A stretch of 37,481 nucleotides of DNA from a virus. Taxonomy: Duplodnaviria; Heunggongvirae; Uroviricota; Caudoviricetes. This document shows, in pieces, positions 1,477 to 25,934 of this stretch. The stretch lies in the IMG/VR virus record IMGVR_UViG_2534681936_000021, positions 1 through 37,481 of that record; one strand, 5' to 3'. Every line of letters begins with the position of its first letter. The stretch's first letter is position 1. A program made the translations under genes and the position numbers. Below the pieces are notes generated by a model, which saw only the letters and a list, made by a program, of their open reading frames with translations, was not told the DNA's origin and made no database searches.

Positions 1477-1535
1477 TCAAATAAGCCGATATAAGCCATT
1501 TTGAGCCATTCGAACGAATTAGGGAGATTACCACA
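1477..1535. promoter_or_regulatory. C/cox divergent promoter-operator region with direct repeats
   Basis: Repeated ataagcc and agccatt units between divergent C and cox starts; a P2-like lysis-lysogeny switch is expected here. Confidence 0.4.
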
Positions 1536-1823
1536 ATGAGCGAATCAGAGCTTGGGGGGTTCATTCAGGTAGCACCATATCCACTTGAAGCGGTGCCATA
1601 TCAACTATTCGCCAAGATGATCGGCCGCAAGGAATCCACAGTCAGAACCATGATTGACGCAGCAAAGCTACCGACAATTGACTTTGTGAAACCAGGTTCA
1701 GTAAAGACGCGTGCATCAGAAAACTGGGTATATCTGCCAGCATTTAACGAAGGCATGCGCAAAGCGTTTTTTGAGCAACCGAAAGAACGCCGCGACGCAT
1801 GGTTGTTGTGGCTGGGACTTTAG
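1536..1823 (+). CDS. cox: Cox-like excisionase / switch regulator
   Basis: 95 aa; PYQLFAKMIG...WVYLPAFN...WLLWLGL resembles P2 Cox; RBS agggag 10 nt upstream; divergent from C. Confidence 0.8.
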   Translation: MSESELGGFIQVAPYPLEAVPYQLFAKMIGRKESTVRTMIDAAKLPTIDFVKPGSVKTRASENWVYLPAFNEGMRKAFFEQPKERRDAWLLWLGL

Positions 1824-1829
1824 TCATAA

Positions 1830-2036
1830 ATGACCAGCCATATCATCAGCGCCATTCTGACCCTTGTTTTTATTGAGATAGGCGTAATAGAGATCTATTT
1901 GTTTCGCAAGTTAACGGGACATGAAGAACGCTTTATTGAACTCAGCATTGAATATATCGCCGCTTATACCAAAGGACTTTTCCCGGCAGCTATTGGGGCG
2001 ATGTTTATAGCGTTTGTTATCTGGTTTATCGGGTGA
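1830..2036 (+). CDS. small hydrophobic membrane protein (68 aa), unknown function
   Basis: ATG 7 nt after the cox stop; two predicted hydrophobic helices; lower GC than neighbours. Confidence 0.4.
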   Translation: MTSHIISAILTLVFIEIGVIEIYLFRKLTGHEERFIELSIEYIAAYTKGLFPAAIGAMFIAFVIWFIG

Positions 2037-2288
2037 GAAACCTGACAACCCACAACTACTGCAATGAGGGTAATTATGTGTGGCATGGACAAATTGGACC
2101 TTATGTTAATTGTAATACTATCAATTAACTTCGGTTACCTCTTAAGCGGCGCAATTCTCATGTGCGGAGGCAAACGAAAATGAACCAGCAGTCCGCAAAA
2201 CGTGAAAACAATGCGATGCGATTTAATCGCAAATATTTTGAGTTCGGCCTCTATGCCGGAATAATTAAATCTGTACAGAGTCTTTAAC

Positions 2289-2630
2289 ATGAAACAGCAA
2301 CGTAATTCACGCTTTCGCAATGGTGCAGAACGCCACGCTAACCGTTTTGCTACCAGTGCATCACGCAGCAACATCCGCTACAGCCTGAGTGATACACACG
2401 CAACGCCGGATGGCTACCCAGTAAAACAAATCGGCGAGCATGCCTGGCTGATTGAGAAAGCTGGAATCGTGATCCACAAATGCCCACGCAATCCGTTTAC
2501 CGGAAACCGCATTTTTGCTCTAAGCAGTGGCGACAATCAGTTCGGGCAGGATTTCACATTATACGAAGCACTTCGCACGGTTGATCGTCTGCTTCGCGGG
2601 CAAAGTTTTATTAAACAGGCTGATTTATAA
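2289..2630 (+). CDS. early-region hypothetical protein (113 aa)
   Basis: Clean ORF in the early rightward operon; no family recognised. Confidence 0.5.
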   Translation: MKQQRNSRFRNGAERHANRFATSASRSNIRYSLSDTHATPDGYPVKQIGEHAWLIEKAGIVIHKCPRNPFTGNRIFALSSGDNQFGQDFTLYEALRTVDRLLRGQSFIKQADL

Positions 2631-2640
2631 CAGGTGCTTT

Positions 2641-2928
2641 ATGACCAAAGACCATGCACAAGGTGTATTTATCCGTTTTATTGATTTTCGCGGTGAACTG
2701 TTATTACGTGCATCCGCTATTGACGGAGTGACTCCGGCGGGTAAAAACGGAGCCGACGAAGCCACTTACGTTTATCTGAACGGCACGCGACTGCTTCTGG
2801 AACTTCCGTACCAGACCGTACGAGAAATCATTAGCGAAGCTGAAAAGGCACGCCAGGCTAATGGCGATGAACCCTATATCGAAATTATTTGTATGGATTC
2901 AGAAGCTGAAATACAGAAAGCAGATTAA
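2641..2928 (+). CDS. early-region hypothetical protein (95 aa from the ATG at 2641)
   Basis: In-frame ATG at 2641 just after the upstream stop; the track ORF begins earlier at 2527 but overlaps the previous gene. Confidence 0.5.
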   Translation: MTKDHAQGVFIRFIDFRGELLLRASAIDGVTPAGKNGADEATYVYLNGTRLLLELPYQTVREIISEAEKARQANGDEPYIEIICMDSEAEIQKAD

Positions 2929-2936
2929 AGGGCGTT

Positions 2937-3182
2937 GTGATGGGCAAAGAATATAAAACTCTCATTAACAAAGCACTTGAGCGTTTTTATTTTCGCTTAA
3001 GTGCATCAGGCGCTCATGCTGAACGTGCGGCCCGTGACTCATTGACCAGAGCAATCCGAAGTCTGTATGACGTGGCTTTTTACGCTGATGATCTGGATGC
3101 ACTTAACGAACTTTCCGAGCTGATCTGTGCCGCAGAATGCGGGGAACATATTGAACCGTATAAGCTGGGGAATATCGCATGA
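2937..3182 (+). CDS. early-region hypothetical protein (about 80 aa)
   Basis: GTG-ATG start at 2937/2940 directly after the upstream stop. Confidence 0.45.
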   Translation: MMGKEYKTLINKALERFYFRLSASGAHAERAARDSLTRAIRSLYDVAFYADDLDALNELSELICAAECGEHIEPYKLGNIA

Positions 3183-3292
3183 GTATATTTATCTCATGGC
3201 TTGTTCTGATTATTTCGGTGGCCTGCGCTATTGGGATTATGCGAATTATTCATTCAATAAAAAAGATTGAACGTTTTTTCACTGGCGAATAA
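3179..3292 (+). CDS. possible 37-aa hydrophobic peptide (MSIFISWLVLIISVACAIGIM...), below the ORF-track size cutoff
   Basis: ATGA start/stop overlap with the upstream ORF; single predicted transmembrane helix. Confidence 0.3.
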   Translation: MSIFISWLVLIISVACAIGIMRIIHSIKKIERFFTGE

Positions 3293-3378
3293 CAGAGCAA
3301 ATAAAACCACAGATAAAATAAGAAAATGTAAAAACAATCCGCATTAGCGGAGGTATTCGCACACGCCAAGGAGGCGTA

Positions 3379-3582
3379 ATGGCAATTAAGCATTTTCCTG
3401 TCGTTCGTTTTACCTCCAGAGGGCGTGAATACGAAGTCGACGAACGCCTGATTACCACAATCGACAAACACCGTTCGGAAAAGGATGCACACCACATCTA
3501 CCTCACTGACGGCACTTACTTCTGCGCCACCAACGTGGCGCGGGTGAATCTTATCCGACAGGTACAGGAGCCACGCAGATGA
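3379..3582 (+). CDS. early-region hypothetical protein (67 aa)
   Basis: RBS aaggagg upstream; stop overlaps the next start (ATGA). Confidence 0.45.
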   Translation: MAIKHFPVVRFTSRGREYEVDERLITTIDKHRSEKDAHHIYLTDGTYFCATNVARVNLIRQVQEPRR

Positions 3583-3845
3583 CCATTCTGGACTACATCG
3601 CTACCCATCCGGGTTGTAGCGGCGGAGAAATCGCCGCAGCACTGAATACCCCAACCACAGCCATCAATGCTGAGTTACGCCGACTCTGGCGCGGCGGCTT
3701 AGTCATCAGAACAAACCGCAGCACAGGTGGTCGCGCTCGCAAAGCAGGAGGCCAAGCTTCTTACCACGTAAACCCGATGCCGTTCGGGTGTAGCAATCCA
3801 CTTACTCACATGTTTAACCAGCTACTGAAGGAAACCAGAGCATGA
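3579..3845 (+). CDS. early-region protein, possible winged-helix DNA-binding fold (88 aa)
   Basis: Translationally coupled to both neighbours; the N-terminal 60 aa read as a small helix-turn-helix/winged-helix pattern (inference only). Confidence 0.4.
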   Translation: MTILDYIATHPGCSGGEIAAALNTPTTAINAELRRLWRGGLVIRTNRSTGGRARKAGGQASYHVNPMPFGCSNPLTHMFNQLLKETRA

Positions 3846-4141
3846 GCACCATCAATCACCAGAAGCTACGCGAACTGGCATTTGCCCTGCAACGAATGGC
3901 AACGCCTCAAAAATTACTGGTATTTCGCGCAATGCTCTCGCCGTCTGCTGTGCTGGCACTGCTGGATGAGCTGGAGCACGCCAGAACCACGGCTCCTGCC
4001 ATTCGCCTGACGCTCCATCATGAAATCGCTGATTTCTGCGCGACGTTGAAGGCGCCAGGCGAACCGGAAACACCGGAAGTAATACAGCAAGAGCTGCTGC
4101 AACGCATTGACAAGGTTTTTGATTTTTTTCTGAACCAGTAA
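3842..4141 (+). CDS. early-region hypothetical protein (99 aa)
   Basis: ATGA overlap with the upstream gene. Confidence 0.45.
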   Translation: MSTINHQKLRELAFALQRMATPQKLLVFRAMLSPSAVLALLDELEHARTTAPAIRLTLHHEIADFCATLKAPGEPETPEVIQQELLQRIDKVFDFFLNQ

Positions 4142-4263
4142 GAAACCAGAACATGCACACACAAAAAAACCGCTTGCCATGCCGCAATCAGTCAGGTTAC
4201 ATTTCCGCTGCACCTCACAAAACGGGTGTCGGGTTTCGCAGCCTGCTGACTACACAAGCGCAC

Positions 4264-4284
4264 AACCGCGCCAGCGGTTTTTTT
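4264..4284 (+). terminator. intrinsic terminator-like hairpin (aaccgc-gcca-gcggtt followed by T7)
   Basis: 6-bp GC stem, 4-nt loop and a run of 7 T; lies within the non-coding stretch after the early ORFs. Confidence 0.5.
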
Positions 4285-4463
4285 GTGCGTACTGTATTGC
4301 CACGTTTTTTTCGCGTCAGAATTATGGCGGGGCGTACGGGGCCGACTTCGGTCGGGCCGGGTTCTTGTGTAGCCGGTACTGCGAACCTCGTACGTCTCGC
4401 CACCCACAGTTTCGCAGCTCTGGATGGTGAGTTTTCACAACTTACTACACAAGGGGCCACACC

Positions 4464-4640
4464 ATGGCAAACCGCAGACTTTCCCGCGCATCACGCGTCG
4501 CGCAAATCATGCACATCAATATGCTGCATGAGCGCAGCCACGCACTATCAAACATTTATTCCGCCTCTGTTTTCAGCTATCTGGCGGATGATCTGCGCGA
4601 GCTTCAACAGCTCATCCAGCAGCAAAACAAACTCCATTAA
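4464..4640 (+). CDS. possible 58-aa helical protein (MANRRLSRASRVAQIMHINMLHERSHAL...), below the ORF-track size cutoff
   Basis: ATG preceded by aagggg about 7 nt upstream; translation reads as amphipathic helix. Confidence 0.35.
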   Translation: MANRRLSRASRVAQIMHINMLHERSHALSNIYSASVFSYLADDLRELQQLIQQQNKLH

Positions 4641-4712
4641 TTCCTGTTCCGGGCCTTTCCTGCACCTTGCGGCGGGAGGCCTTCGCACATCTGTAACAAG
4701 AGGATTGCCGCA

Positions 4713-5078
4713 ATGATTCTCGCCAACGACTTTCTTGAATACCTGCTCAACACAGAACGTGATCTTGCCGCTCGCGTGCGTGATCGTTATGACATGTACC
4801 AGAAATCCCTGCCTGTACCGCAGCTCGCTGACGGAAAGATTGTTATTGATGGTCGCTACATGATTGACAGCCACGAGGGAAATTACAGGCTTTACCGCAT
4901 TGAAGGTGGCACCCCGTCCGTTATTGGCATTTACCAGCGCCCATCCTCTGCAATCGTCGATGTGATTGCCGACAGCATCCGCATCACACATCGCCATGCC
5001 GACACAGAAGACACCGTGCTGGAAATTCAGCGGCTGGCTGCCGTCTGCCGCGACACCCTGAATGGCATGACGAAGTAA
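4713..5078 (+). CDS. hypothetical protein preceding replication gene A (121 aa)
   Basis: RBS aagagga upstream; clean ORF ending 6 nt before the gene A start. Confidence 0.55.
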   Translation: MILANDFLEYLLNTERDLAARVRDRYDMYQKSLPVPQLADGKIVIDGRYMIDSHEGNYRLYRIEGGTPSVIGIYQRPSSAIVDVIADSIRITHRHADTEDTVLEIQRLAAVCRDTLNGMTK

Positions 5079-5084
5079 ATCACT

Positions 5085-7943
5085 ATGACGGCAGAGTACA
5101 TCAGGGACTGGCAACAACCGCGCCACGCAGTGGGGCGTGAAGGAACGGGGATCCCCGTTCCTGAATCCGCGCTTTCCTCCTGGCTGGATGCCTACCGGGC
5201 AGAGAACGAGCGCCGCCAGGAAATGGCTGATGCGGCGTTCTCCGCCACGCCGCTGAGCAACCTGATTAATAAAAGCCTGGACGCACAGGAAAAACAGGAC
5301 AAAACCATCACACTGGCAGGAGACGCCAGAAAACAGGCACGCGGCGCGGTGGATGAAGCCATGGCCTCGCTGCGCCTGCTGCCGTCCTATCTGCGCGATC
5401 CGCTTATTCGCCACCTCTCCTTCCTGCGCAAAAAACAGGAAGCCGATCGCCGGAAAGGCAAAAAGAGCTGGCAGGCTGAACGCTACGCGCGCGGAACCCT
5501 GCGCAAAATATTCGAACGTCTGGACCGCACCGACCACCGCTGGCTGACACCGGGTTATCGCTCCCTTGCCGGACGCGAACGCCTGGATGATTTGCTTTAC
5601 CTGCCGCAGCTCAACCAGCACCAGATACAGACGCTGGCCACCATGACGGCGGCGATGTTCAGCAGCACCTTCGAAAAACTCTGCGATGGCTTTGGCGCGA
5701 CCGATGGCGAACTGACCATGGATGTAACGCTGAAGGCGTATCAGATGCTGGCCCGCATGGCGTTACACCTGCACGCCATGCCGCCACATTACGAAGCTCT
5801 GAACAAGAGCGATCCGGATACGGAACTGTTACCGGGCGCAATCCTTCGCCTGACCTGTGCGGAATGGTGGAAACGCAAACTGTGGCTGTTACGTTGCGAG
5901 TGGCGGGAAGAACAACTCCGCGCCGCCTGTCTGGTTTCCAAAAAAACATCGCCCTATCTGAGCCAGGACGCGTTAAGCGAGTTTCGCGCACAGCGCGAGA
6001 AAACACGCGATTTCCTGAAAAGTTTCATGCTGGAAAACGAAGACGGGTTCACGATTGATCTCGAGACAGTGTATTACGCGGGAGTAAGTAACCCGGTTCA
6101 CCGTAAGGCAGAAATGATGGCCACCATGAAGGGGCTGGAACTTCTGGCCGAAGCCCGTGGCGACAAAGCGGTGTTTCTGACCATCACCTGCCCGTCAAAA
6201 TACCACGCCACAACAGAGAACGGTCATCCGAATCCCAAATGGAACGGGGCCACCATGCGCGACTCCAGCGATTACCTGGTTAACACGTTTTTTGCGGCGG
6301 TCCGCAAGAAACTGAACCGCGACGGCCTGCGCTGGTATGGCATCCGCACAGTGGAGCCTCACCATGACGGCACCGTGCACTGGCATATGATGGTCTTTGC
6401 TCATCCGGAAGAAATCGACACCATTGTGTCCCACACCCGCGATATTGCCATTCAGGAAGATCGTCACGAGCTGGGTGATGATATTACCCCACGCTTTAAG
6501 GCGGAGTACGTCGACGGCTCAAAAGGCACGCCAACCAGCTACATCGCCACCTACATCGGAAAGAACCTGGACAGCCGCGCCGTAGATGGCATCGACCCGA
6601 AAACGGGCAAGCCACGCGTTGACCACGAAACCGGAAAATCGATGGCCGAGAGCGTGGAACGCGCCATCGGCTGGGCGCGCCTTCACCGTGTCCGCCAGTT
6701 CCAGTTCTTTGGTATCCCCTCCCGTCAGGTGTGGCGTGAACTCCGCCGCCTTGCCAGCCAGATGGCACGCAACCCGGAAGGCCCGCAACGGCTGAAGGAT
6801 GACGCAATGGATGCGGTACTCGCTGCCGCTGATGCCGGATGTTTTGCCACCTACATAGAGAAACAGGGCGGCGTACTTGTTCCACGCAAAGACTACCTGA
6901 TTCGCACCGCCTACGACCTCGCAGATGAGCTGAACGATTACGGCGAACAGAGCGTACAGATTTACGGGATCTGGTCACCACTCATCGGGGAATCCTCCCG
7001 TGTGTGCACGCATCCGGATAACTGGAAGCTGGTAAGACGCAAACCGGAAGCGGAAGACAGCGCCCGCGAAAATGGTTTTGACCTTCAGGGCGCCCCTGCC
7101 GCCCCTTGGACTCGTGGCAATAACTGTCCCCGTATACAGGAAACGGGCAACAACGGGACAGAACAGCCGGAAGAACGGCCAGCACCGTGGCCGCAGCTTC
7201 CTGACGGCGTTGACGTGAATGAATGGATGCGCTCACTGAAACGGCACGAACACCGGGCGCTGATGCGTTCGCTGCGTGACAAACAGGCAAAAAACAGCAG
7301 TGATGAAATGCAGAACTGGACACAGAGCCGCAAACAGCCACAGCCTTTGCCTGATAACCACGAGTTACTCGCTAAAGAATGGCGGGAGTCTGCTGAATCT
7401 CTCGGCCTGCATATCGGTGAACAGCAGATGCAGCACCTGTTACGGGGCGGCAGTCTGTACGTTGACGGCAGCATCATTGCACCGCAGGGATTTGAAATTG
7501 TACGCAAACCGGATACCCGCCCGGACAGCCGAATCACGCAGCTCTGGCAACGCCTGAGCCGTAATCACGGCGTAAGCAGCACGGAGATCCGCCATAACCC
7601 GGTCGCCAGCTATCTGGAACAGCTGGGGGCATCAGACCCCGAAGCCGCCACACGCCTGGAATCCACACTTCAGCAGGACCAGAACACCATGAAAACCCCC
7701 GTTACCGTGCTTTCTGACATGCTGTGCGCCATCCGTGACGCAGAGCACGCACAGAGAATCAGTGAAACCACTGAACGCGCCCGCCGCAAAGCAGACCTGC
7801 TGCGGGGTAGCCTGACCAGTGGAAACAAAAAACAGACAGAAACGGGACTCACAAATCCCGTAAATGAGCAAAAACGTGCCGCGATATATGAAGCGCGCAC
7901 AAAACAGGCAAAAGCGGGATTTAAAAATCCTGTAACCGATTAA
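5085..7943 (+). CDS. A: replication initiation endonuclease, P2 gpA family (rolling-circle HUH nickase), 952 aa
   Basis: HUH-like motif EPHHDGTVHWHMMVF and tyrosine motif YIATYIGK in the translation; position after the early genes as in P2. Confidence 0.9.
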   Translation: MTAEYIRDWQQPRHAVGREGTGIPVPESALSSWLDAYRAENERRQEMADAAFSATPLSNLINKSLDAQEKQDKTITLAGDARKQARGAVDEAMASLRLLPSYLRDPLIRHLSFLRKKQEADRRKGKKSWQAERYARGTLRKIFERLDRTDHRWLTPGYRSLAGRERLDDLLYLPQLNQHQIQTLATMTAAMFSSTFEKLCDGFGATDGELTMDVTLKAYQMLARMALHLHAMPPHYEALNKSDPDTELLPGAILRLTCAEWWKRKLWLLRCEWREEQLRAACLVSKKTSPYLSQDALSEFRAQREKTRDFLKSFMLENEDGFTIDLETVYYAGVSNPVHRKAEMMATMKGLELLAEARGDKAVFLTITCPSKYHATTENGHPNPKWNGATMRDSSDYLVNTFFAAVRKKLNRDGLRWYGIRTVEPHHDGTVHWHMMVFAHPEEIDTIVSHTRDIAIQEDRHELGDDITPRFKAEYVDGSKGTPTSYIATYIGKNLDSRAVDGIDPKTGKPRVDHETGKSMAESVERAIGWARLHRVRQFQFFGIPSRQVWRELRRLASQMARNPEGPQRLKDDAMDAVLAAADAGCFATYIEKQGGVLVPRKDYLIRTAYDLADELNDYGEQSVQIYGIWSPLIGESSRVCTHPDNWKLVRRKPEAEDSARENGFDLQGAPAAPWTRGNNCPRIQETGNNGTEQPEERPAPWPQLPDGVDVNEWMRSLKRHEHRALMRSLRDKQAKNSSDEMQNWTQSRKQPQPLPDNHELLAKEWRESAESLGLHIGEQQMQHLLRGGSLYVDGSIIAPQGFEIVRKPDTRPDSRITQLWQRLSRNHGVSSTEIRHNPVASYLEQLGASDPEAATRLESTLQQDQNTMKTPVTVLSDMLCAIRDAEHAQRISETTERARRKADLLRGSLTSGNKKQTETGLTNPVNEQKRAAIYEARTKQAKAGFKNPVTD

Positions 7944-7967
7944 TTATTCAACATAAGGAAAAGCGAC

Positions 7968-8927
7968 ATGAAAATTTGTATCGATGACGGCTCCACCAAC
8001 ATCAAGCTGGCATGGACTGAGAACGGCGAACGCCGCAACGCCATCAGCCCAAACAGCTTCAAGTCGGAATGGTCTGCGCCGTTCGGTGGCACGCAGCCCG
8101 CGAACTACATGCTTGATGGCGTGCGCTATGGTTTTGATCCGGTCAGCGATCGCTTTGTCCAGACGACCGACACGCAATACCAGTACAGCGATGTGAATGT
8201 CATTGCTATTCATCACGCGCTGGTCAAATCAGGCATCACACCACAGGAAGTGGATGTGGTTGTCACCCTGCCACTGAGCGAATATTTCGACACAAACGCA
8301 CAGCCGGACATGGTCAACATCAACCGCAAAAAAGCGAACGTCATGCGCCCGGTGGAGTACCAGAACGGCGAAGCATTCACTATCCGTAACGTACGGGTTA
8401 TGCCTGAATCCATTCCGGCTGGCTTTAAAGCACTGGCTGACATGAGTCCGTTTGAATCCCTGCTGATTGTGGATTTGGGCGGAACCACGCTGGATGTGGC
8501 AAAGGTTCAGGGGCAACTGGCAGGTATCAGCCAGGTGTTTTGCGATCCACACGTAGGCGTTTCTCTGATGGCCGATGCCGTACTGTCGGTGATGGCCACT
8601 AACGGTATGCGCACCAGTCACCACATCGCCAATACCATTATCGAACGTCGCCATAATGAAGCCTGGCTGCGCCAGCACATCCACAATGACGCGCATTACG
8701 CCAGCCTGATGGCGGTTATTCGTGAAAAGGAAGAAACACTGAAACAACGCGTGATCCGCGCGCTGGCGGGTTTTTCGGGTTACGGGCGGGTGATGGTTGT
8801 CGGTGGAGGGGCGGAGATTGTGGCACCCGCTATCCGCGAAGCCTGCGGAGTTAATGCGACTTTCATCGCGGACGGGGTGCCACAGTTTGCTCTGGTTAAT
8901 GGGCTGTACGCAATGGACAAGGAGTAA
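7968..8927 (+). CDS. parM: ParM/StbA-family actin-like ATPase
   Basis: N-terminus MKICIDDGSTNIKLAW plus YSDVNVIAIHHAL, VMPESIPAGF, LIVDLGGTTLDV and VMVVGGGAE closely parallel plasmid R1 ParM as recalled. Confidence 0.85.
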   Translation: MKICIDDGSTNIKLAWTENGERRNAISPNSFKSEWSAPFGGTQPANYMLDGVRYGFDPVSDRFVQTTDTQYQYSDVNVIAIHHALVKSGITPQEVDVVVTLPLSEYFDTNAQPDMVNINRKKANVMRPVEYQNGEAFTIRNVRVMPESIPAGFKALADMSPFESLLIVDLGGTTLDVAKVQGQLAGISQVFCDPHVGVSLMADAVLSVMATNGMRTSHHIANTIIERRHNEAWLRQHIHNDAHYASLMAVIREKEETLKQRVIRALAGFSGYGRVMVVGGGAEIVAPAIREACGVNATFIADGVPQFALVNGLYAMDKE

Positions 8928-8931
8928 ACCA

Positions 8932-9243
8932 ATGACAACACCAACCAGACGGATAAGTTTCTATCTGAAGCCAGCTGCCGTCAAGAACGAAGGAGAAGCA
9001 TGCGCCTGGCTGGACAGCCTTACACCAGAAGCCCGCAAAAGCGGCCAACGCGTGGCTTTTCTGGCCGGGCTGGCACTTCTGAAGACGAATCCGGCAGAGG
9101 CTTACCGACTGGCCGCATGGGCTGATGATGAGATGTTACCTGTGACACAAATCAGCTCAAAAAAGTTTGAAGCACAGTCTGCACCAGTGGCTAAGATAAC
9201 CAGCCAGATGGCTGGGAATATCCGGGCGTTATTTCCTGAGTAA
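8932..9243 (+). CDS. parR: ParR-like small DNA-binding partner (103 aa)
   Basis: RBS aaggag upstream, 4 nt after the parM stop; N-terminus RRISFYLKP and LAGLALL segment resemble R1 ParR as recalled. Confidence 0.6.
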   Translation: MTTPTRRISFYLKPAAVKNEGEACAWLDSLTPEARKSGQRVAFLAGLALLKTNPAEAYRLAAWADDEMLPVTQISSKKFEAQSAPVAKITSQMAGNIRALFPE

Positions 9244-9284
9244 AAGCATCTGCGCGAAAAATGCTCACGTTTATAGAGACAGTA

Positions 9285-9430
9285 TCATTCCATTTGGCAC
9301 ACTTACTTCAATAATCGATCTGTTAAACAAATAGATTGTCTATTATCTATCGATTAAAACGATCAATTATCTTGACAGTAATGTGCCTTTTTGTAAGATC
9401 GTTCGCATTGTGAGCGACAAGATAATTGCG
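9285..9430. repeat. iteron-like repeat cluster (four CGATC/TCGAT cores; inverted repeat caattatcttg / caagataattg)
   Basis: Seen directly in the sequence downstream of parR; candidate centromere or operator. Confidence 0.35.
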
Positions 9431-9448
9431 CGGCATTGTCCATGCAAA

Positions 9449-9478
9449 ACGCCCCAATAGCAGCAACTATTGGGGCGT
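9449..9478. other. perfect 12-bp stem hairpin (acgccccaatag / ctattggggcgt)
   Basis: Perfect inverted repeat with a 6-nt loop, flanked by AAAA on one side. Confidence 0.5.
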
Positions 9479-9505
9479 AAAACTCGGTCGGACTCACTTA
9501 ACCTG

Positions 9506-9590
9506 ATATGCGTGCCTTCCGAAGTAAATCAAAATGTGCGTCGTATATTTTATTGCTTACACGCACCTCTGTAAAGGCACGCATATTTTT
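9506..9590 (+). promoter_or_regulatory. nested palindromes plus T-run immediately upstream of the 89-aa ORF (attenuator/terminator-like leader)
   Basis: 13-bp perfect inverted repeat atatgcgtgcctt / aaggcacgcatat enclosing an inner gtgcgt/acgcac pair, followed by TTTTT and then the RBS. Confidence 0.4.
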
Positions 9591-9607
9591 CCTATGAGGT
9601 AAATAAA

Positions 9608-9877
9608 GTGCGGGCTAAAACAGGTATTTGCAAGAACCCTCATCGTTATAATCCAACATTTCTGTCTCTCCCTGAATATCAAGGACAAGAAGGTCGGCAC
9701 AAATGCGCTGCCTGTGCTTTTGAGCTAGGCATAAAAGATGCGCTTGAAGGACGCGCTATGGCTCAGAATGATTTAGTTTTAGCTAACATTCCGTTTAGCC
9801 AGGCTGGAACTGTAAGGCACAGAGATGCCTATGAAGCATATGTTCGTGGTTGGCGATTAATACACAGCAACAATTGA
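9608..9877 (+). CDS. hypothetical 89-aa protein (GTG start)
   Basis: RBS gaggt 7 nt upstream; ORF followed directly by an intrinsic terminator; no family recognised. Confidence 0.4.
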   Translation: MRAKTGICKNPHRYNPTFLSLPEYQGQEGRHKCAACAFELGIKDALEGRAMAQNDLVLANIPFSQAGTVRHRDAYEAYVRGWRLIHSNN

Positions 9878-9885
9878 TACTTTTG

Positions 9886-9909
9886 AAGCGCCGATAAGGC
9901 GCTTTTTTT
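9886..9909 (+). terminator. intrinsic terminator (aagcgcc-gataa-ggcgctt followed by T7)
   Basis: 7-bp stem, 5-nt loop and T-run 9 nt after the ORF stop. Confidence 0.65.
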
Positions 9910-10438
9910 GTTTGCACGATAGTGCACAAGTTTGCACAATTTTTTTGAACGACTTTTTGTACTTCCGGCCCGCGTGGTGGCTGGATCCGTCAAGGATCCG
10001 TACGTGCACAAAAAAACGCGTTTTTTCTGCGCGCAGGTGACGGGGGAACAGCCCGCGTTTCAGGGGGTAAACAGCATTCCCTGAACGATGTCGCAGCGAC
10101 ACAACGGAATGGCTGTCTTTCTCACGCTGAGCGTGAAAAATACGTGAGGGCTTTTGATTTGATGGGGTGACTGATAAGGCCGTCAAAATCGCACTGAGGC
10201 GACGAGAACATGCAGTCAGCACGGCGGGATTGCGTAAGAGCCTGACCGTCGATGATGACAATAAGCTGGAAGGCGTCGTGAAATTATCTGATTGATACAG
10301 GAGCTGGAGAGTCGGGGCATAAATTTTTTATGCCCCGGCGAAGCAGCAGACAAGCGAAGCGCGTCAGCGATACGGCACCTTGCCGACCATACTTCATAAG
10401 TGCAAAATACGAGCAAAGAAATCAATGGAGGCTGTCTT

Positions 10439-10963
10439 ATGGTCATTAATTACAAGCAGTTAAGAGAAAAACGGGAGCAGGTAAAGGAGAGCTTTCGCCG
10501 CAATGAAGATCTGACCCCGCTTGTACGCCTTGCCCAGGGCATTGTTGATGCTTATGAAATCTCGCTGGAGCTGCCATCACAGACCTGGACAGATAGCGAC
10601 GGTAATCGCCAGCATTACGTTTCATGCGGACTGGAAGCAGCCGAAGGATTTCGCAGAATGCCTTTATCCCAGATCCCTGCCGCTACCCCCAAAGCACGAG
10701 GCAGCAATGATGAGCGAAAACTGACTTTTAGTATTGAAACGGTGGTTGACGACACACCTGGCGAAGTCGCGTTCGTGCACACTCCTGTTTCGATCGCAAT
10801 GTATAACGATGAAATACAGGTTCGCGTTAATAATAATATCGTGCCACTTAAAGAAGGTAATTCACCCTACACCACCGTTTGTGAAGCCATTCAATATTAC
10901 GTTCTCTCTGAAATTGATAATCTCAAGCCTGACGGCACCCAGAAAATGGTTCAACTCTGGTAA
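10439..10963 (+). CDS. hypothetical 174-aa protein, unknown function
   Basis: RBS ggagg 8 nt upstream of the ATG at 10439; ends at the bidirectional terminator shared with Q. Confidence 0.5.
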   Translation: MVINYKQLREKREQVKESFRRNEDLTPLVRLAQGIVDAYEISLELPSQTWTDSDGNRQHYVSCGLEAAEGFRRMPLSQIPAATPKARGSNDERKLTFSIETVVDDTPGEVAFVHTPVSIAMYNDEIQVRVNNNIVPLKEGNSPYTTVCEAIQYYVLSEIDNLKPDGTQKMVQLW

Positions 10964-10994
10964 AAAGGACAGCCCCATCACGGGGCTGTTTTTT
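10964..10994. terminator. bidirectional intrinsic terminator between the 174-aa ORF and Q
   Basis: aaaaa-acagcccc-atcac-ggggctgt-tttttt: 8-bp stem flanked by an A-run and a T-run. Confidence 0.65.
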
Positions 10995-12024
10995 CATCAA
11001 GAAGAGCATAAGAGTTAAAACGGATCACCTCTTCGCCAAGCCAGTCATTGATGTGCTTCATAGCCTCCATGACGGGCATCAGCTCGTTAATTGCGTAAAC
11101 CCGCGCGGCCTTCTCCACATCACCAAACGCACTTTTTTCGCCCGGCATCGCCCCCATCAGTTGCGGCGGAACGCGGTGCGCAGCCAGCACATCATCACGG
11201 GATGCCGCCTTAACATTCATGAACTCATCCTTTGCGGTGATCTGCTGGAACGGCAAAATTTGCACCCCCTCTTTGCCCCCGTTGGGCGCATGGATGAGCA
11301 CGTTTTTAAACGCACCACCACCACGCGCACCCTGTAACGTTTCTTTCAGGGAGTCCATGCTTTCGCGGTTTACCTGCGCTGCACCGATGTAGATGATGCA
11401 CCCGGCGTGGGATCCATTGTCGTAATACAGTTTTCTGAACATGTCCGCCGAATGAGACAGGCTGGCCGAGAGTAATGCGCCAAGATATTCCGGCATGCCG
11501 TAAATTTCCTGGTTAATGTCCGGATTCATCAGGTGGCACACTTTGCCAGGGCGAAACTGAAACGCGTCCTTGCCATCCTGCACATACCACCATGATTCAA
11601 GATCGCTTCCGCGTCGCATGTATTTCGCCAGGGCGTGCCGTAATTTAAGCGGTTCACCGAGCATATTGCTTCGAAGCTCAAGGAATGCGTTACCGAACAC
11701 AAACCAGTCCAGCGCCAGCGCCGAGAAATCCTGCCGGGAAAGCAGCGGGTGCGGAATATAGCAGCCGAGCAATACATTGCGCTTAAAGTAAAGCGCAGAC
11801 TGATGCCAGGACGTTTGCCGGGCAGCTCTTGCCAGACCGTACCAGTCCACCGGGGTTTCATACCACCGCCCGTTATCAGCACAGTACATATTGTCCAGCA
11901 GGTCATGCCCGGTCAGGCGATAAGGACCATCAAATGTGAATGCACTGAGCGATGATTCTTTCCTGAGCGCATCAGCGAGATCAATGCGTGAACTCATGCG
12001 CACTTTTTTATTTTTTCTGCTCAT
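10978..12024 (-). CDS. Q: portal protein, P2 gpQ-like
   Basis: 348 aa; position and size match P2 Q; divergent from O as in P2. Confidence 0.85.
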   Translation of the reverse strand: MSRKNKKVRMSSRIDLADALRKESSLSAFTFDGPYRLTGHDLLDNMYCADNGRWYETPVDWYGLARAARQTSWHQSALYFKRNVLLGCYIPHPLLSRQDFSALALDWFVFGNAFLELRSNMLGEPLKLRHALAKYMRRGSDLESWWYVQDGKDAFQFRPGKVCHLMNPDINQEIYGMPEYLGALLSASLSHSADMFRKLYYDNGSHAGCIIYIGAAQVNRESMDSLKETLQGARGGGAFKNVLIHAPNGGKEGVQILPFQQITAKDEFMNVKAASRDDVLAAHRVPPQLMGAMPGEKSAFGDVEKAARVYAINELMPVMEAMKHINDWLGEEVIRFNSYALLDEKTAP

Positions 12025-13775
12025 CAGAACTCCATAACCGTGAAACGCTCGTTTTCTCCTTCGCCGCCAATCGGTTCATTAATGACAGCAAGCATGGTTG
12101 CCCACGCAAGGTCGCCGTGGCTGATCCCCCTCGCTCGGTCCGTTTCGTAAGTGATAAAGCCGCCCGGTGTTTTCACCTTACGCACGGCGTTAAAGGCCGC
12201 GACCAGCTCGCGTTCGGCGCGATCGTATTCCCACCGCCCGGCACGCATTATTTGCAGCATTTTCAGTACCAGCGACCGTTTTGATGACAGCGTGAAGGTG
12301 TACGGAATAGCAGCAGGGAAAAACCGTTTCACTATCTGATAAACAGCCTCCCCGTTCCCGCCCGTCACATCAATGCCGATGTGTTCCACGTTGTAGCGAC
12401 ACGTGAACTCCTCAATGACTCTGGCCTGTTCTTCAAACTCCAGCCCCTGAACGCGTCGCGTCTCCACCGTTCGAAAACGGCCACCAGGAACAGCCGGAGG
12501 AACCACCACGGACACCGCGCCGCTGTCGCCGTTTCCACTGCTGCCGTTTGCGTCATACCCAATCCATACCGGACGATTCCCCATCGGGCGGGGAGCAAAA
12601 GGTTTCCAGTCTTTCCAGTCGTCGTATCCATCAACACCGCAGCCAATCAGGATATTCAGGTTAAATGCCGATTCCCCTTCGTGGACAAACTCACACATAT
12701 AGAGATTGCGGAACTCGTCTTCGGTGTTTTCATCACGAATTTCATCAATATCGGTGTGTTTCCAGCCGTGATTAACCACATCTTCCAGCGTGACAATTTG
12801 CCGCCACGTCCGGTCGGGGCAGATAAGTCCGTTATGCAGCGTTTTCCAGTCCACAGAAAAACGCTGGCGTTTATGCGCGGCCTTTTTCTCGTTCCAGCGG
12901 TCGCCGTTCCAATAGACGTATGCCTCGTGCGTTTCGGTGGATGGCGTGGAGAAGTAGGTGCGCCGCAGTCCGCTGAGGGTTGCCATAGCGCCAGCCACCT
13001 TGCGCAGTTCAGCAAAGCGACTGACCCAGAAAAATTCATCAAAATAAAAATTGCCTGTGTAGGACTGTGCCGTCGCAGCAGAAGTACCGAGAAAATGCAG
13101 TTCTGCGCCGTTGGAGAGGATGATTTTATCGCCCCCTTTCAGCTCCACATCAACTTCAGCCGCGGCCTTCTGAATAATGCTTTTAAACTGGAACGCCTGA
13201 CGACGCGACGCAGACAAAAAAATCTGGTTACGCTGGTAAGGTTGTGCCACATCGTCACGCAGCGCCATCAGCAGTGCTTCCTGTGCAAAATACCAGGTCG
13301 CCCCAATCTGTCGGGATTTCAGGATCATCCTGTTACGTATCCCGGCTTCACTGCAAAGGGTCAGGGAGTCAAACCAGCCCCGCTGATGCCACTCCAGCCT
13401 GCTGATGATTTTTTCCCGCAGTGCGGCAATCTGCTCCGGCGTGAAATGATTTTTAAGTTTTTTCGCCCGGCCTTTCTTTCCTGTGGCCGTCGCATCCGGC
13501 TGGCCATCATGCAGTTTTTTAAGCTGCCGGGTCAGCAGGTCTATTTCCTTAAAGTCACCACCTGTTTTATTCTGTTTTTCAGTAAGCTGGATGAGGCGCG
13601 CATCGATGGACTGCGTGACACGCTGCACGGGTGGCGTTTCATCCCACTGGTCGCGTTTTTTCCACGCATAAATCGTGTTCGGGTTTATTCCCATCAGACG
13701 TGATATTTCTGCGGGCGGATAACCCTGCCAGTAAAGTTGCCGCGCACGCTGGCGCACAAAAGCGTCCTGAATCAT
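12024..13775 (-). CDS. P: terminase large (ATPase) subunit, P2 gpP-like
   Basis: 583 aa; ATPase-like segment; stop overlaps the Q start. Confidence 0.9.
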   Translation of the reverse strand: MIQDAFVRQRARQLYWQGYPPAEISRLMGINPNTIYAWKKRDQWDETPPVQRVTQSIDARLIQLTEKQNKTGGDFKEIDLLTRQLKKLHDGQPDATATGKKGRAKKLKNHFTPEQIAALREKIISRLEWHQRGWFDSLTLCSEAGIRNRMILKSRQIGATWYFAQEALLMALRDDVAQPYQRNQIFLSASRRQAFQFKSIIQKAAAEVDVELKGGDKIILSNGAELHFLGTSAATAQSYTGNFYFDEFFWVSRFAELRKVAGAMATLSGLRRTYFSTPSTETHEAYVYWNGDRWNEKKAAHKRQRFSVDWKTLHNGLICPDRTWRQIVTLEDVVNHGWKHTDIDEIRDENTEDEFRNLYMCEFVHEGESAFNLNILIGCGVDGYDDWKDWKPFAPRPMGNRPVWIGYDANGSSGNGDSGAVSVVVPPAVPGGRFRTVETRRVQGLEFEEQARVIEEFTCRYNVEHIGIDVTGGNGEAVYQIVKRFFPAAIPYTFTLSSKRSLVLKMLQIMRAGRWEYDRAERELVAAFNAVRKVKTPGGFITYETDRARGISHGDLAWATMLAVINEPIGGEGENERFTVMEF

Positions 13776-13929
13776 TGCTCCCCCTGAGTAATTACAGGAA
13801 GATTACCCGCGCGCGAAACCGTTCTCCTTAACCCCCTGTTCTGGCCGTTTTCTTACAACAAAAGCCCTTTGTATCAGCCTGTTACGCTTTGCCATCATGA
13901 CTGAAGAACCAGTCAGAGGGGCAAAAACT

Positions 13930-14766
13930 ATGGCTAATGAAAAAAAGACATCCCGCAAAAAGTTTCGCGTGGCTGTCTCCGGATCAACTGTTGATGGCCG
14001 TGAAATCAGTCCGGTGCATCTGCGTGAAGCCGCCGAGAACTTCAACCCGGATGTTTACGCTGCCCGCGTGAACGTTGAGCACTATCTCTCGCCATGCCCG
14101 TCAAGCGAATTTTCCGCAATGGGCGATGTCACCGCACTGAGTACGGAAGACATTACGGAAGGTCCGCTGGCCGGACGTACTGCGCTGTATGCAGAAATCG
14201 AACCGACCGAGCGCATGAAGCAGCTTGTCGCGGACGGCAAGAAAATCTATTCCAGTATCGAACTGCACCCGCAGTTCTCCGTTAACGGGCGCGCCTATCT
14301 GGTCGGGCTGGCGATGACCGACACCCCGGCAAGCCTGGGCACTGAGCGCCTGAAATTCACGGCACAGCAACGTCAGGCGGTGATGACGTTCAACAGTGTC
14401 CAGGGTGAAGCACCGCTCATTTCCGAAGCCATCGAGTCTGAAATCATCGAAATGGCAGAACAACGCCAGGAAGAAGGCACCCAGTGGTTTAACCGCGTAA
14501 TGGGGATTATTGGTCGTGGCCGCAAAGCGGATGACGCCAGTTTCTCCCGTATTCAGGAAGCGGTGGAAGGCGTCGCAACGTCACAGGCCGACATTATCGA
14601 CCGTTTTAATGTGCTGGAAACCCGCCATCAGCAGGACCGCCAGAAAATCACGTCACTGACCACAGAGCTGACAGCACTGAAGGAAAAACTGCGCACGCAG
14701 GACGGCGATCCGCAGAACCGGTTCACCGCAACAGGTGCAGCCTCCGACCAGCTGGCTGACTTCTGA
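13930..14766 (+). CDS. O: capsid scaffolding protein, P2 gpO-like
   Basis: ATG at 13930 with RBS gagggg upstream; acidic coiled-coil C-terminus; size matches gpO. Confidence 0.8.
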   Translation: MANEKKTSRKKFRVAVSGSTVDGREISPVHLREAAENFNPDVYAARVNVEHYLSPCPSSEFSAMGDVTALSTEDITEGPLAGRTALYAEIEPTERMKQLVADGKKIYSSIELHPQFSVNGRAYLVGLAMTDTPASLGTERLKFTAQQRQAVMTFNSVQGEAPLISEAIESEIIEMAEQRQEEGTQWFNRVMGIIGRGRKADDASFSRIQEAVEGVATSQADIIDRFNVLETRHQQDRQKITSLTTELTALKEKLRTQDGDPQNRFTATGAASDQLADF

Positions 14767-14789
14767 TAAGACAAAGGAGCAAATTTTTT

Positions 14790-15841
14790 ATGAATCTGGT
14801 GATGTCAGATATTACCCGCAACAAGCTGGGTTGCTATATGGCGCAGCAGGCGTCGCTTAACAATATCCCGGTATCTGCACTGGTATCGCGATTTACCGTG
14901 GAACCCTCGGTGCAGCAGCGTTTTGAAAACGCAGTAAAGGAGAGCACTGAATTTACAAAAAAATTAACGTGTTCGGTGTGACTGACCAGAAAGGCGAAAA
15001 AATCCTCCTGGACACCACCGGGCCGATTGCGCGCACGAATACCAGTTATGACGGCACAAAACGCCGTAACCCGAATAACGTGGTTGATCTGAAAAACCGC
15101 AAATACCAGTGCGAACAGGTGAACTACGACACGTTTATTTCGTATCCGCAGCTTGATGCCTGGGCGGCACACCCTGATTTTCAGTCCCGCGTCAGCACAC
15201 AGATTGCCCGGCAGGTGGCGCTTGACCGCATCATGATCGGTTTCAACGGCACGTCTCACGCGGATGAGTCCAACTTCAGCACTAACAAGCTGCTTCAGGA
15301 CGTTAACGTGGGATGGCTGGAGCACATCAGAACCGACGCCAGCGAGCGCGTTATGAATGATGTAACGCTGACCTCCCGCAACATGGACAACACCGTGGCG
15401 CACGCGGGTAAATATGCGAACGCTGATGCACTGGTACAGGACGCGCGCTCATCCCTGCTGGATGAATGGCACAAGGAAGCTGACGACCTCGTGGTGATTA
15501 TGGGGCGCAACCTGTTTAACTCGCTGCGTCTGCCCGTGCTGAACAGCATCAGCGGCCAGAATCCCAATGCGGAATTACTTGCCGGACAGCTCATCCTGTC
15601 ATCGCGCGCCATTGGCGGGCTGGATGTATTCCTTGCGCCGTTCTTCCCGGATGCAACGATGCTGATCACCTCGTTCAACAACCTGTCAATTTACTGGCAG
15701 AAAGGAACAATGCGTCGCCTGATGAAAGACGAGCCGGAATACAACCGCATTGCCACCTACCAGTCCATCAATGACGCTTATGTCGTTGAAGACTATGGCA
15801 AGTGCGCGATGGTCACTGGCCTGAAGTTCGCCGACAGCTAA
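14790..15841 (+). pseudogene. N: major capsid protein gpN-like, split by a single-base frameshift near the A7 run at 14957-14963
   Basis: Track ORFs 14790-14981 and 14969-15841 together read as one gpN-like protein (FTVEPSV..., KGEKI..., LSIYWQ..., YVVEDYG) if one base is restored near 14960-14970. Confidence 0.75.
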
Positions 15842-15886
15842 TCACCTCACGGCGGGCATCATGCCCGCCTGTAACGGAGAGAAAAA

Positions 15887-16687
15887 ATGATTACTCCTGC
15901 ACAGCAACACTGGCAGAACGTGATGGCACAGCGCGCAGGCCGGGCGAATGAAGGCGTGGACCACGCCGCGCGTACCGCGCATGAAGAGGTGCTGTATCGT
16001 CTGCGTCTGGCACAGGCCCGGCTTAAGGGCGTACAGGCCAGAAGCGCGAAAGCCGCCATCAAAAAAGAGTTATTGCCGGACTTTTCCGGCTGGATTGAGG
16101 GAACGCTGGAGGCTGACGGCGGGCAGCAGGATGAAGTGATTGCCACGCTGATGGTGTGGGCGATTGACTGCGGCGATCTTCCGCTGGCGCTGCGTATTGG
16201 TGCATATGTGGTCCGTCACAACCTCATCATGCCGGATAACTTTGGACGTACTGCTGCCACGGTACTGACCGAAGAAATCTGTAATCCGGTACTGACGCAG
16301 GCCGGGACGGATGCCGACGCGGATTTGTCCGCCTTTATCGAACCACTGGACACCCTCCGGGAGATTGTCACCGACCAGGACATGCCGGACGAAGTGCGCG
16401 CCAAATTATGCAAGGCGTGCGCCTTTGCCCGCCGTGGCCTGAGCGATGCGGACAGCATGGCCCTGTCATTGAAGCTGCTGCGCGAAGCAATGCACCTGAA
16501 CCCGAACGCAGGTGTGAAACGCGAGATTGCAACCCTTTCCCGCGCCCTGAAAAAAGCCGATTCCGCAGCAGCACCAGAAGACGCCAGCGCACAGCAGGCG
16601 CAGGACGAAAGCAGCAAAAGTAAAAAGACAACGCGGAAGCCTGCAACACGAAAAACCACCGCGACGCAGAAGGCGAAGCGCGGTTAA
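15887..16687 (+). CDS. M: terminase small/endonuclease subunit, P2 gpM-like
   Basis: 266 aa; position after N and size match gpM. Confidence 0.8.
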   Translation: MITPAQQHWQNVMAQRAGRANEGVDHAARTAHEEVLYRLRLAQARLKGVQARSAKAAIKKELLPDFSGWIEGTLEADGGQQDEVIATLMVWAIDCGDLPLALRIGAYVVRHNLIMPDNFGRTAATVLTEEICNPVLTQAGTDADADLSAFIEPLDTLREIVTDQDMPDEVRAKLCKACAFARRGLSDADSMALSLKLLREAMHLNPNAGVKREIATLSRALKKADSAAAPEDASAQQAQDESSKSKKTTRKPATRKTTATQKAKRG

Positions 16688-23892: not shown

Positions 23893-24494
23893 TGACACAG
23901 GCAAAATTAAACAGTGAATTTATTGCCACAGTAGCGGGTGATATTACCGTCTATAACTATGACAACACGACACGGGAATACATTTCATCATCAACAGAAT
24001 ATCTTGCCGTTGGCGTCGGTATCCCGGCATGTTCTTGTTTAGATGCACCAGTTACACATAAAGCTGGTTATGCAATCTGCCGTTCTGCAGATTTTAACTC
24101 ATGGGAATATGTACCAGACCATCGCGGTGAAATCATCTATAGCACCGAAACAGGAGAATCGAAAGAAATCACAGCTCCGGGTGATTACCCTGAAAATACA
24201 ACCACTATCGCCCCGTTAACGCCATTCGATAAATGGGATGGTGAGAAATGGGTGACGGATACCGAGGCACAGCATAGCGCCGCACTAGACGCGGCAGAAG
24301 CAAAGCGCCAGTCGCTGATTGATGCTGCAATGGCTTCCATCAGTCTGATTCAGATGAAATTACGGGCCGGGCGGAAGCTGACGCAGGCAGAAACCACCCG
24401 ACTTAACGCTGTGCTGGATTACATTGACGCGGTGGAGGCAACAGATACCAGCACCGCGCCTGATGTCATCTGGCCTGAACTGCCGGAGGCGTAG
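23892..24494 (+). CDS. G: tail fibre assembly chaperone gpG-like (copy 1)
   Basis: 200 aa; C-terminal WPELPEA-type tail typical of fibre assembly proteins; follows H. Confidence 0.8.
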   Translation: MTQAKLNSEFIATVAGDITVYNYDNTTREYISSSTEYLAVGVGIPACSCLDAPVTHKAGYAICRSADFNSWEYVPDHRGEIIYSTETGESKEITAPGDYPENTTTIAPLTPFDKWDGEKWVTDTEAQHSAALDAAEAKRQSLIDAAMASISLIQMKLRAGRKLTQAETTRLNAVLDYIDAVEATDTSTAPDVIWPELPEA

Positions 24495-24906
24495 GCCATT
24501 CAATATCTGGCGCACCGGAAGTATCGACCAGTTCCAGTGCGTCCAGATAATCCAGCCACAAATTATATTGCGCCAGTTCCCCACCTTTCAGGCGACCAAT
24601 CGCCGCTTTACCAGGCCATTGCTTACTGTTTATGTATTCGTTGACCTGATTAATCAATTGCTGCTTTTCCAGTTCGGCTGCGGCAATTTGTTCCTCATGA
24701 GTTGGCGGTGGAGTATCAATCCATGCAGGCATTCCGTCGATGACACCTCTGTATTTTCCTTCTGGTGCTTCCTTCATAAATTCGGCGGCAACAGTGTCGT
24801 CAATTTCGATTCCATCACCGGGCCATTCGCCGGATTCCTGATAAGCGATTTTAAGCTCCACAGGGAAAAACGCATTTTTATCGGCACTGAAAATATATTT
24901 CTGCAT
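24466..24906 (-). CDS. tail fibre assembly chaperone, alternative copy (G')
   Basis: 146 aa, convergent with and overlapping G by 29 bp; similar C-terminal motif (DIEWPTPP). Confidence 0.75.
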   Translation of the reverse strand: MQKYIFSADKNAFFPVELKIAYQESGEWPGDGIEIDDTVAAEFMKEAPEGKYRGVIDGMPAWIDTPPPTHEEQIAAAELEKQQLINQVNEYINSKQWPGKAAIGRLKGGELAQYNLWLDYLDALELVDTSGAPDIEWPTPPAVQAR

Positions 24907-24908
24907 TT

Positions 24909-25307
24909 CTACCGTCCTATCGAAATATAACTGAATCTGTATTGCTGTGAGATATCACTGGTTGCCACACGCCACGCTGAATTACTGATATGTTCAAAAT
25001 TTACAGACAAAACCTGCGGGGCAGGATTCGACGGGGCTGACTGAACGGCATCAGACATAACACTGACTGAAACCATCGGCTGATTAGGGAATGGTATAGG
25101 GAAGTGTCCACTGATAAAGCGGGTCGTGTTTCCTGAAAAAGTGCCAAACTGAACAATATATCCACCTGGTAGCCTGAACCATCCCGAACCAGAAGCGAAT
25201 GCTCCCATATCCGGTATCTGATTATCTCCTGTGCCCACATTCCGTTTTGCCGCTTCTCCCAAACCAACGTTTAAGAAAATGCAGAGATTATGGCTAACTG
25301 GCATCAT
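24909..25307 (-). CDS. alternative tail fibre C-terminal segment (Hv'); functional only when fused to the H N-terminus by inversion
   Basis: Frame is continuous with the crossover core at 25265; translation after the core (GLGEAAKRNVG...) parallels H after its core (GLGEGSALPVG...). Confidence 0.6.
   Translation of the reverse strand: MMPVSHNLCIFLNVGLGEAAKRNVGTGDNQIPDMGAFASGSGWFRLPGGYIVQFGTFSGNTTRFISGHFPIPFPNQPMVSVSVMSDAVQSAPSNPAPQVLSVNFEHISNSAWRVATSDISQQYRFSYISIGR
25254..25279. promoter_or_regulatory. right crossover site for the DNA invertase (ttctcccaaacc-aa-cgtttaagaaaa)
   Basis: Inverted partner of 23378-23403; lies 56 bp upstream of the invertase gene. Confidence 0.65.
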
Positions 25308-25334
25308 CCCCGGTTTTTATTCAGGGGATCCATC

Positions 25335-25934
25335 ATGCTTATTGGCTATGTCCGCGTATCAACAAATGACCAGAATACAGAATTGCAGCGTAACGCGCTG
25401 GAGTGCGCAGGATGTGAACTGATTTTTGAAGATAAAATCAGCGGAACGAAATCAGCCAGACCGGGATTGAAAAAACTGATCAGAACGCTATCAGAAGGAG
25501 ATACGCTGGTTGTCTGGAAGCTGGACAGACTGGGCAGAAGTATGAAACACCTGATCACGCTTATTGAGGAATTGCGGGAAAAAGGTGTTAATTTCCGTAG
25601 TCTGACGGACAGCATTGACACATCAACACCCATGGGGCGTTTCTTTTTTCACGTCATGGGGGCTTTAGCCGAAATGGAACGTGAATTAATTGTAGAGCGT
25701 ACACTGGCCGGGCTGGCAGCAGCACGCGCACAAGGACGCATTGGCGGACGTCGCCCGAAGTTGACAAAAGAACAACACGAGCAAATAGCGAGGCTGATTA
25801 AAAACGGTCATGACAGGAAACAACTGGCGATCATTTACGACATCGGCATATCGACGATTTATCGTTATCACCCTGTAGGCGATATACAGGCTGAAGAAAC
25901 AACCAGGCAGACTCAGGAAAATGAAAACCGCTAA
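25335..25934 (+). CDS. serine DNA invertase (Gin/Hin/Pin/Cin family)
   Basis: N-terminus MLIGYVRVSTNDQNTELQ with the catalytic serine context; resolvase-type fold and C-terminal helix-turn-helix (GISTIYRY). Confidence 0.9.
   Translation: MLIGYVRVSTNDQNTELQRNALECAGCELIFEDKISGTKSARPGLKKLIRTLSEGDTLVVWKLDRLGRSMKHLITLIEELREKGVNFRSLTDSIDTSTPMGRFFFHVMGALAEMERELIVERTLAGLAAARAQGRIGGRRPKLTKEQHEQIARLIKNGHDRKQLAIIYDIGISTIYRYHPVGDIQAEETTRQTQENENR

Follow-up and report, generated by a model that had tools for sequence, protein, structure and literature searches.

The major capsid gene N of this prophage is split by a frameshift that, together with a similar split in tail gene D, most probably reflects a base-calling or assembly artefact of a draft assembly from 2012; from the sequence comparisons described here, we put the probability of this reading at about 0.88. 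The window, by which we mean the whole stretch of 37,481 nucleotides that was analysed, had been described in an earlier note as carrying either a genuine lesion in N or a homopolymer sequencing error at a run of A residues, with a leaning toward systematic error. The sequencing error is strongly supported. The window corresponds to what is very probably the draft of Escherichia coli strain DEC5A, and both the closed DEC5A genome and that of FDAARGOS_946 have eight A residues (A8) at the site in N and six (A6) at the site in D, leaving N and D intact. The other possibility, a defective prophage unable to form capsids, is not supported for DEC5A, N being intact in the closed genome.

The prophage in the window is complete and belongs to the P88-like genus Xuanwuvirus of the P2 family; its limits are given by the integrase gene at one end (1-1005, minus strand) and the host gene flk at the other (36486-37481). 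In the closest genomes, the insertion site lies between pdxB and flk. The order of the head module is canonical, with Q and P on the minus strand divergent from O-N-M-L (Table 1). The prophage also carries ParM/StbA-like and plasmid-stability genes, and the related loci L016-L025 differ in the cargo that separates the partition genes from the portal gene (for example KAP NTPase; AAA with S8 peptidase; HTH with M78 peptidase). Cargo ORFs of unknown function include a 340-aa ORF between D and ogr (32923-33945, minus strand) and small ORFs upstream of the portal gene (9300-10963 and 7968-9243); a comparison of the cargo ORFs with the PADLOC defence models gave no matches. In the tail-fibre region (24466-25934), oppositely oriented tail-fibre-assembly and gp53-like genes are found beside a resolvase-family recombinase gene (25290-25934), an arrangement that looks like a Cin/Gin-type invertible host-range segment.

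Table 1. Coordinates of the head module, the sites of the frameshifts and neighbouring features, numbered from the first base of the window
Feature	Position	Strand	Basis or remark
Portal gene	10978-12024	-	ORF map and annotation of relatives
Terminase large gene	12024-13775	-	ORF map and annotation of relatives
Scaffold gene O	13897-14766	+	ORF map and annotation of relatives
Major capsid gene N of the P88-like (Xuanwuvirus, P2-family) prophage, in two frames	14790-15841	+	Gene order; PF05125 on both pieces; one base off the intact 350-aa WP_001055118.1 genes
N-terminal fragment ORF of N, 63 aa, with out-of-frame tail LTCSV-stop	14790-14981	+	Translation; PF05125 profile positions 4-49; exact product on 157 public contigs
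AAGGAG inside gene N, 13 nt upstream of the A run	14938-14943	+	Read from the sequence; bears only on leaky frameshifting
A7 run, site of the missing base	14957-14963	+	Alignment and whole-window comparison; A8 in every intact relative examined
C-terminal fragment of N, 290 aa from the first GTG (true frame entered at the A run)	14969-15841	+	Translation; PF05125 profile positions 50-324
Terminase small gene M	15887-16687	+	ORF map and annotation of relatives; L is next
A5-G-A5 in tail gene D, second draft-only single-base deletion	32415-32424	+	blastn; A5-G-A6 in closed genomes; 81-mer in 0 of 374 records
VasI/TagO-like (PF11319) gene adjoining the prophage, ATG at 35327	35327-36221		T5 at 35340-35344; T7 at 35577-35583
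G in the window, A in both closed genomes (GGAAA versus GAAAA), third draft-only difference	36267	+	blastn; G in 0 of 170 records

An uninterrupted ORF of ~350 codons for N is absent from the window, where the gene occupies two frames, and present in closed DEC5A. In the first frame (frame A), an AAAGGAG ribosome-binding site precedes the ATG at 14790, and 63 codons (MNLVMSD...ESTEFTKKLTCSV) lead to a stop codon at 14979-14981 on the plus strand. The second frame (frame B; ...KKINVFGVTDQKGEK...) is open on the same strand from 14951 onward and ends at a stop codon at 15839-15841. The overlap of the two open frames is limited to 14951-14978, and the A7 run lies inside it. On the PF05125 (Phage_cap_P2) profile, the two pieces abut exactly. 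Adding one A to the run gives a 350-aa gpN identical to the protein of functional phage P88 relatives, and this restored gpN matches profile positions 4-324 of 327 with 399.5 bits.

We compared this region with its relatives using a 1.2-kb query across N, which matched 1,102 E. coli complete-genome records as well as 17 phage records. In phage P88 (NC_026014), FDAARGOS_946, closed DEC5A and strain 90-9280, the N stretch is the same as in the window except for A8, and N is one 1053-nt ORF encoding WP_001055118.1 or YP_009113069.1. Because these relatives are identical here apart from A8, which gives them a single ORF, and because the PF05125 pieces abut, the split is, as judged from the alignments, a single-base deletion within one gene rather than two ORFs paired by chance. 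The description of N as two frames that can be joined by restoring one base near the A7 run is thus borne out by the frame overlap, the profile and the A8 relatives.

Two further observations were made on N and its leader. The T run at 14779-14784, between the AAAGGAG and the ATG of N, is T6 in the window, FDAARGOS_946 and several other loci and T5 in phage P88, strain 90-9280 and others, such that the spacing between Shine-Dalgarno sequence and start codon is polymorphic. We also considered and rejected an apparently split capsid gene in phage P88_4B11 (NC_049391.1; locus L034, 1084-2121), whose first ~640 bases align with A8 and without an indel. In the RefSeq record, the 5´ part of this gene is covered by a "hypothetical protein" on the minus strand, and the "major head protein" is just 162 aa long, which is probably a mis-annotation.

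The origin of the window was traced by exact-sequence look-up of the 63-aa and 290-aa fragments of N and the 123-aa fragment of D, each of which separately retrieved contig AIFQ01000020.1 of the 2012 draft GCA_000249495.2. The window is 100% identical to this contig over 6,192, 20,873 and 10,051 bases and is located at about 106,496-143,976. The D fragments have adjacent GenBank accessions, EHV23785 and EHV23786, at least the latter of which is named "Escherichia coli DEC5A". The C-terminal D fragment is present in only two NCBI assemblies, AIFQ01 and AIHN01, and the other name attached to it is DEC14D. Because of this pairing of names and assemblies, the only 96.9% identity of AIHN01 to the window, and the 99.99% identity of the window to the closed DEC5A chromosome, we infer that AIFQ01 is the draft of E. 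coli O55:H7 strain DEC5A.

The closed DEC5A genome (CP038394) was sequenced by PacBio RS II and Illumina (Weinroth and Bono, 2022; PMC9413875). Whole-window blastn against it revealed three differences in 37,481 bases: from closed genome to window, A8 to A7 in N, A6 to A5 in D, and A to G at 36267. The same comparison with the clade-mate FDAARGOS_946 gave four differences, these three and a change from T8 to T7 in the VasI/TagO-like gene that adjoins the prophage. All of the differences between draft and closed genome are homopolymer-length changes or lie at a homopolymer boundary. The check by orthogonal resequencing that the earlier note had proposed is in effect provided by the closed genome, where PacBio and Illumina give A8 in N and A6 in D, both genes being intact.

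The three alleles of the draft were then sought in RefSeq complete E. coli genomes. A 77-mer with A7 was found in 0 of the 207 records matching the N stretch; such short queries speak only to alleles with identical flanks, and 129 of the 207 records carry flank SNPs. Among the records with exact flanks, 78 have A8 and none has A7 or A9. An 81-mer with the A5-G-A5 of D was present in 0 of 374 matching RefSeq complete E. coli records, and G at 36267 in 0 of 170 matching complete-genome records. When an independent assembly of the same haplotype with A7 was sought, only the AIFQ01 draft was found, the other A7 and A9 carriers examined being 1.2-4.2% divergent from the window.

Gene D, which encodes a late control D/VgrG-like hub (31694-32802), is split in the window into pieces of 246 aa (31694-32434) and 123 aa (32431-32802). 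The claim that D shows the same pattern as N therefore holds, with A5-G-A5 in the window against A5-G-A6 in relatives. Broken D pieces are frequent in public assemblies, with the 246-aa piece on 165 contigs and another allele of the 123-aa piece on 260 contigs. In the DEC14D draft (AIHN01), D is also broken in the same A tract, as A4-G-A6. We take the DEC14D draft to come from the same sequencing project as the DEC5A draft (presumably that of Hazen et al., 2012). The annotation of D also varies: in the closed genomes (L004, 32464-33264; L005, 5173-5973), PGAP begins D at an internal position, as a "VgrG/Pvc8 family" protein of 266 aa, and adds a small partial CDS on the minus strand. A 369-aa D ORF from the ATG equivalent to window position 31694 is open in the closed genomes, and the 369-aa product occurs on 274 contigs. 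The third difference, the G at 36267, falls within the loop of a perfect CAAAGCCCGT/ACGGGCTTTG hairpin that separates the VasI-like gene from flk; as none of the 170 matching complete-genome records carries it, it is probably a third draft error.

The VasI/TagO-like gene, the repeat-protein gene flanking the prophage, has a different history. Of its two deletions, T6 to T5 at 35340-35344 occurs in the draft and in both closed genomes (DEC5A and FDAARGOS_946), and T8 to T7 at 35577-35583 occurs in the draft and closed DEC5A only; the PGAP annotation of both closed genomes marks the gene as "frameshifted". In DEC14D the gene is intact and encodes a 297-aa PF11319 protein. As its lesions recur in the closed genomes, the VasI/TagO-like gene is a true pseudogene. 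The frameshifts noted earlier in this gene are thus present, but they do not serve as evidence of systematic error because the closed genomes reproduce them. For the same reason, the pipeline behind the closed genomes did not merely repair frames, since both the T7 and the T5 frameshifts were retained. The three frameshift patterns of the window should therefore not be lumped together, two being draft-only and that of the VasI/TagO-like gene real. The longest homopolymer of the window is an A9 run at 34916-34924, in an unannotated stretch between the ogr-like and hok-like genes. The draft agrees with both closed genomes at this run, and hence not all long runs were miscalled in it.

We suggest that the draft undercalled the A8 of N by one base, in which case the true sequence of the strain would be A8 with an intact 350-aa N, and that it likewise undercalled the A6 of D and miscalled the G/A homopolymer boundary at 36267. 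In a paper of the same period from the institute presumed to have made the DEC5A draft, 454 Titanium reads were assembled with the Celera assembler, and the DEC drafts were presumably made alike. The draft was probably made with flow-based 454 chemistry. Two of the three draft-only changes destroy conserved essential virion genes.

Miscalling must be weighed against the possibility that the culture used for the draft carried true slippage mutations, A8 to A7 in N and A6 to A5 in D, in which case its P88-like prophage would be decaying and defective, making neither capsids nor tails. The draft and the closed genome could indeed derive from different laboratory stocks of DEC5A. In the closed genomes, A8 exceeds every other coding homopolymer of the prophage in length, and runs of this type are known slippage hotspots. 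A true change from A8 to A7 is also biologically possible, and A7 is found in many otherwise clean, apparently Illumina-based drafts of at least eight haplotypes. The broken D fragments, which are similarly frequent, could be read in the same way. However, A8 and A6 are seen both in resequenced, closed DEC5A and in the clade-mate FDAARGOS_946, and the RefSeq complete E. coli genomes searched yielded none of the three alleles with matching flanks. Real mutation would require three private homopolymer-type changes in 37.5 kb of otherwise identical sequence. Because three private changes in 0.7% of the genome would correspond to hundreds genome-wide between two stocks (a figure extrapolated from this density), we favor an artefact over divergence of stocks and consider real mutation in the draft culture unlikely.

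The A8 tract of N nevertheless has a wider record in public assemblies. By exact look-up, the 63-aa A7 product is present on 157 contigs, and the 59-aa A9 product (...EFTKKN-stop) on 121 contigs. No two of the eight A7 loci examined share a haplotype, the differences numbering 21 or more in 3.3 kb, and the eight A9 loci are 96-98% identical to the window with different cargo genes. Two of the loci, L006 and L014, are riddled with other homopolymer deletions, while most other carriers have no further broken gene in 6-20 kb. As controls, the predicted products of ±1 changes in four other runs of the same prophage were looked up. An A6 run in N gave one contig for the -1 product and one for the +1 product, an A6 run in M five and one, a T7 run in P two and one, and an A7 run in the integrase gene 46 and five. 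The A8 tract thus is a recurrent ±1 site in public assemblies and stands out against these controls. This excess is what the dependence of slippage on run length predicts, whether in the cell or in the sequencer. Given that A7 and A9 alleles occur in otherwise clean drafts, true examples of decay at this tract probably exist in other strains; some of the A7 and A9 alleles are probably real, prophage-inactivating mutations, and others may be errors.

These counts raise the question of whether A8 is a contingency tract, where frequent toggling between A7, A8 and A9 within lysogen populations switches virion production off and on and the draft happened to sample an OFF variant. The polymorphism runs in both directions, with at least eight haplotypes for each, and the counts for A8 are far above those of the two A6 controls (1-5 contigs) and also above those of the two 7-base controls (1-46 contigs). 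Eight bases are few for a tract dedicated to phase variation, however, and the excess over A6 and A7 runs is expected from run-length dependence of slippage or sequencing error without selection. Together with the uniform A8 of the exact-flank complete genomes, this makes phase variation highly improbable.

The A7 allele could also be tolerated if the split were bridged during expression. With A7, A_AAA_AAA falls in the zero frame, and a -1 ribosomal slip or the insertion of an A by RNA polymerase would yield full-length gpN (...TKKINVFG...). Lysine-codon heptamers and A runs do slip in E. coli, as in dnaX and IS elements. The heptamer, ac-A AAA AAA-tta in frame A at 14956-14963, fits the X_XXY_YYZ pattern in the zero frame, the -1 product would by translation logic be intact gpN, and the upstream AAGGAG could stimulate the slip as in dnaX. 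Since either a -1 slip on A_AAA_AAA downstream of this element or one added A regenerates the intact frame, some leakiness of the A7 state is plausible. As an explanation of the arrangement in the window, however, leaky or programmed frameshifting is exceedingly improbable. The two-frame arrangement is not conserved, as P88, P88_4B11 and all 78 exact-flank complete genomes have A8 and a single ORF, and closed DEC5A has A8 anyway. The RNA downstream of the run does not fold significantly better than shuffled sequence (MFE of -24.2 kcal/mol, z = -1.39, with 15 of 200 shuffles folding as well). Each particle takes hundreds of copies of the major capsid protein, for which frameshifting at a few percent would be a poor design. 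A conserved programmed frameshift was rejected on the basis of the single A8 ORF in P88 and the exact-flank complete genomes and the lack of a significant downstream fold.

Elements of these alternatives can be combined. A8 could be a true bidirectional slippage hotspot that time and again switches virion production off, as A7 or A9, in natural lysogens, with A7 rescued in part by -1 ribosomal or transcriptional slippage on the A_AAA_AAA downstream of AAGGAG, and the window a real OFF variant of DEC5A. We regard this combination as very unlikely; were it true, A7 lysogens would be leaky and not dead.

With a homopolymer error in the draft as the favored reading, it would be a mistake to label this prophage "defective" on the strength of the draft, since the closed genome of DEC5A shows N and D undamaged at the two sites. 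The longest coding homopolymer of P88-like prophages is where ±1 alleles accumulate in public assemblies, a modest and expected by-product of the analysis, and automated calls of prophage intactness from draft assemblies should distrust the A8 tract of N.

The protein concerned is the gpN of P2-family phages (PF05125), and the closest phage is Escherichia phage P88 (Xuanwuvirus P88, NC_026014), to which window positions 14700-15900 are 99.5% identical in DNA sequence, with the same O-N-M order over this 1.2-kb stretch tested. The difference is that P88 and the closed host genomes carry N as one 350-aa ORF, while N in the window lacks one A and is split. Compared with -1 frameshifting of the dnaX type, which combines a slippery A_AAA_AAG, an upstream SD-like element and a downstream hairpin, the window shares an all-A heptamer in frame and an AAGGAG 13 nt upstream. 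In contrast to both dnaX and the conserved E/E+E' tail-chaperone frameshift of P2, the N split is unconserved, showed no significant downstream structure and affects a high-copy structural protein. In the decay of defective or domesticated prophages by homopolymer frameshift, both lesion and site are of the kind seen here, but the lesion in DEC5A was not reproduced by independent sequencing. The resemblance to homopolymer miscalls of flow-based (454 or Ion Torrent) or nanopore sequencing differs in the low density, three differences in 37.5 kb, in a draft whose platform is presumed. The likeness lies in single-base deletions in A runs that break conserved genes and are not reproduced by PacBio and Illumina, and error-laden, long-read style assemblies such as L006 and L014 show the same A7 along with many other homopolymer deletions.
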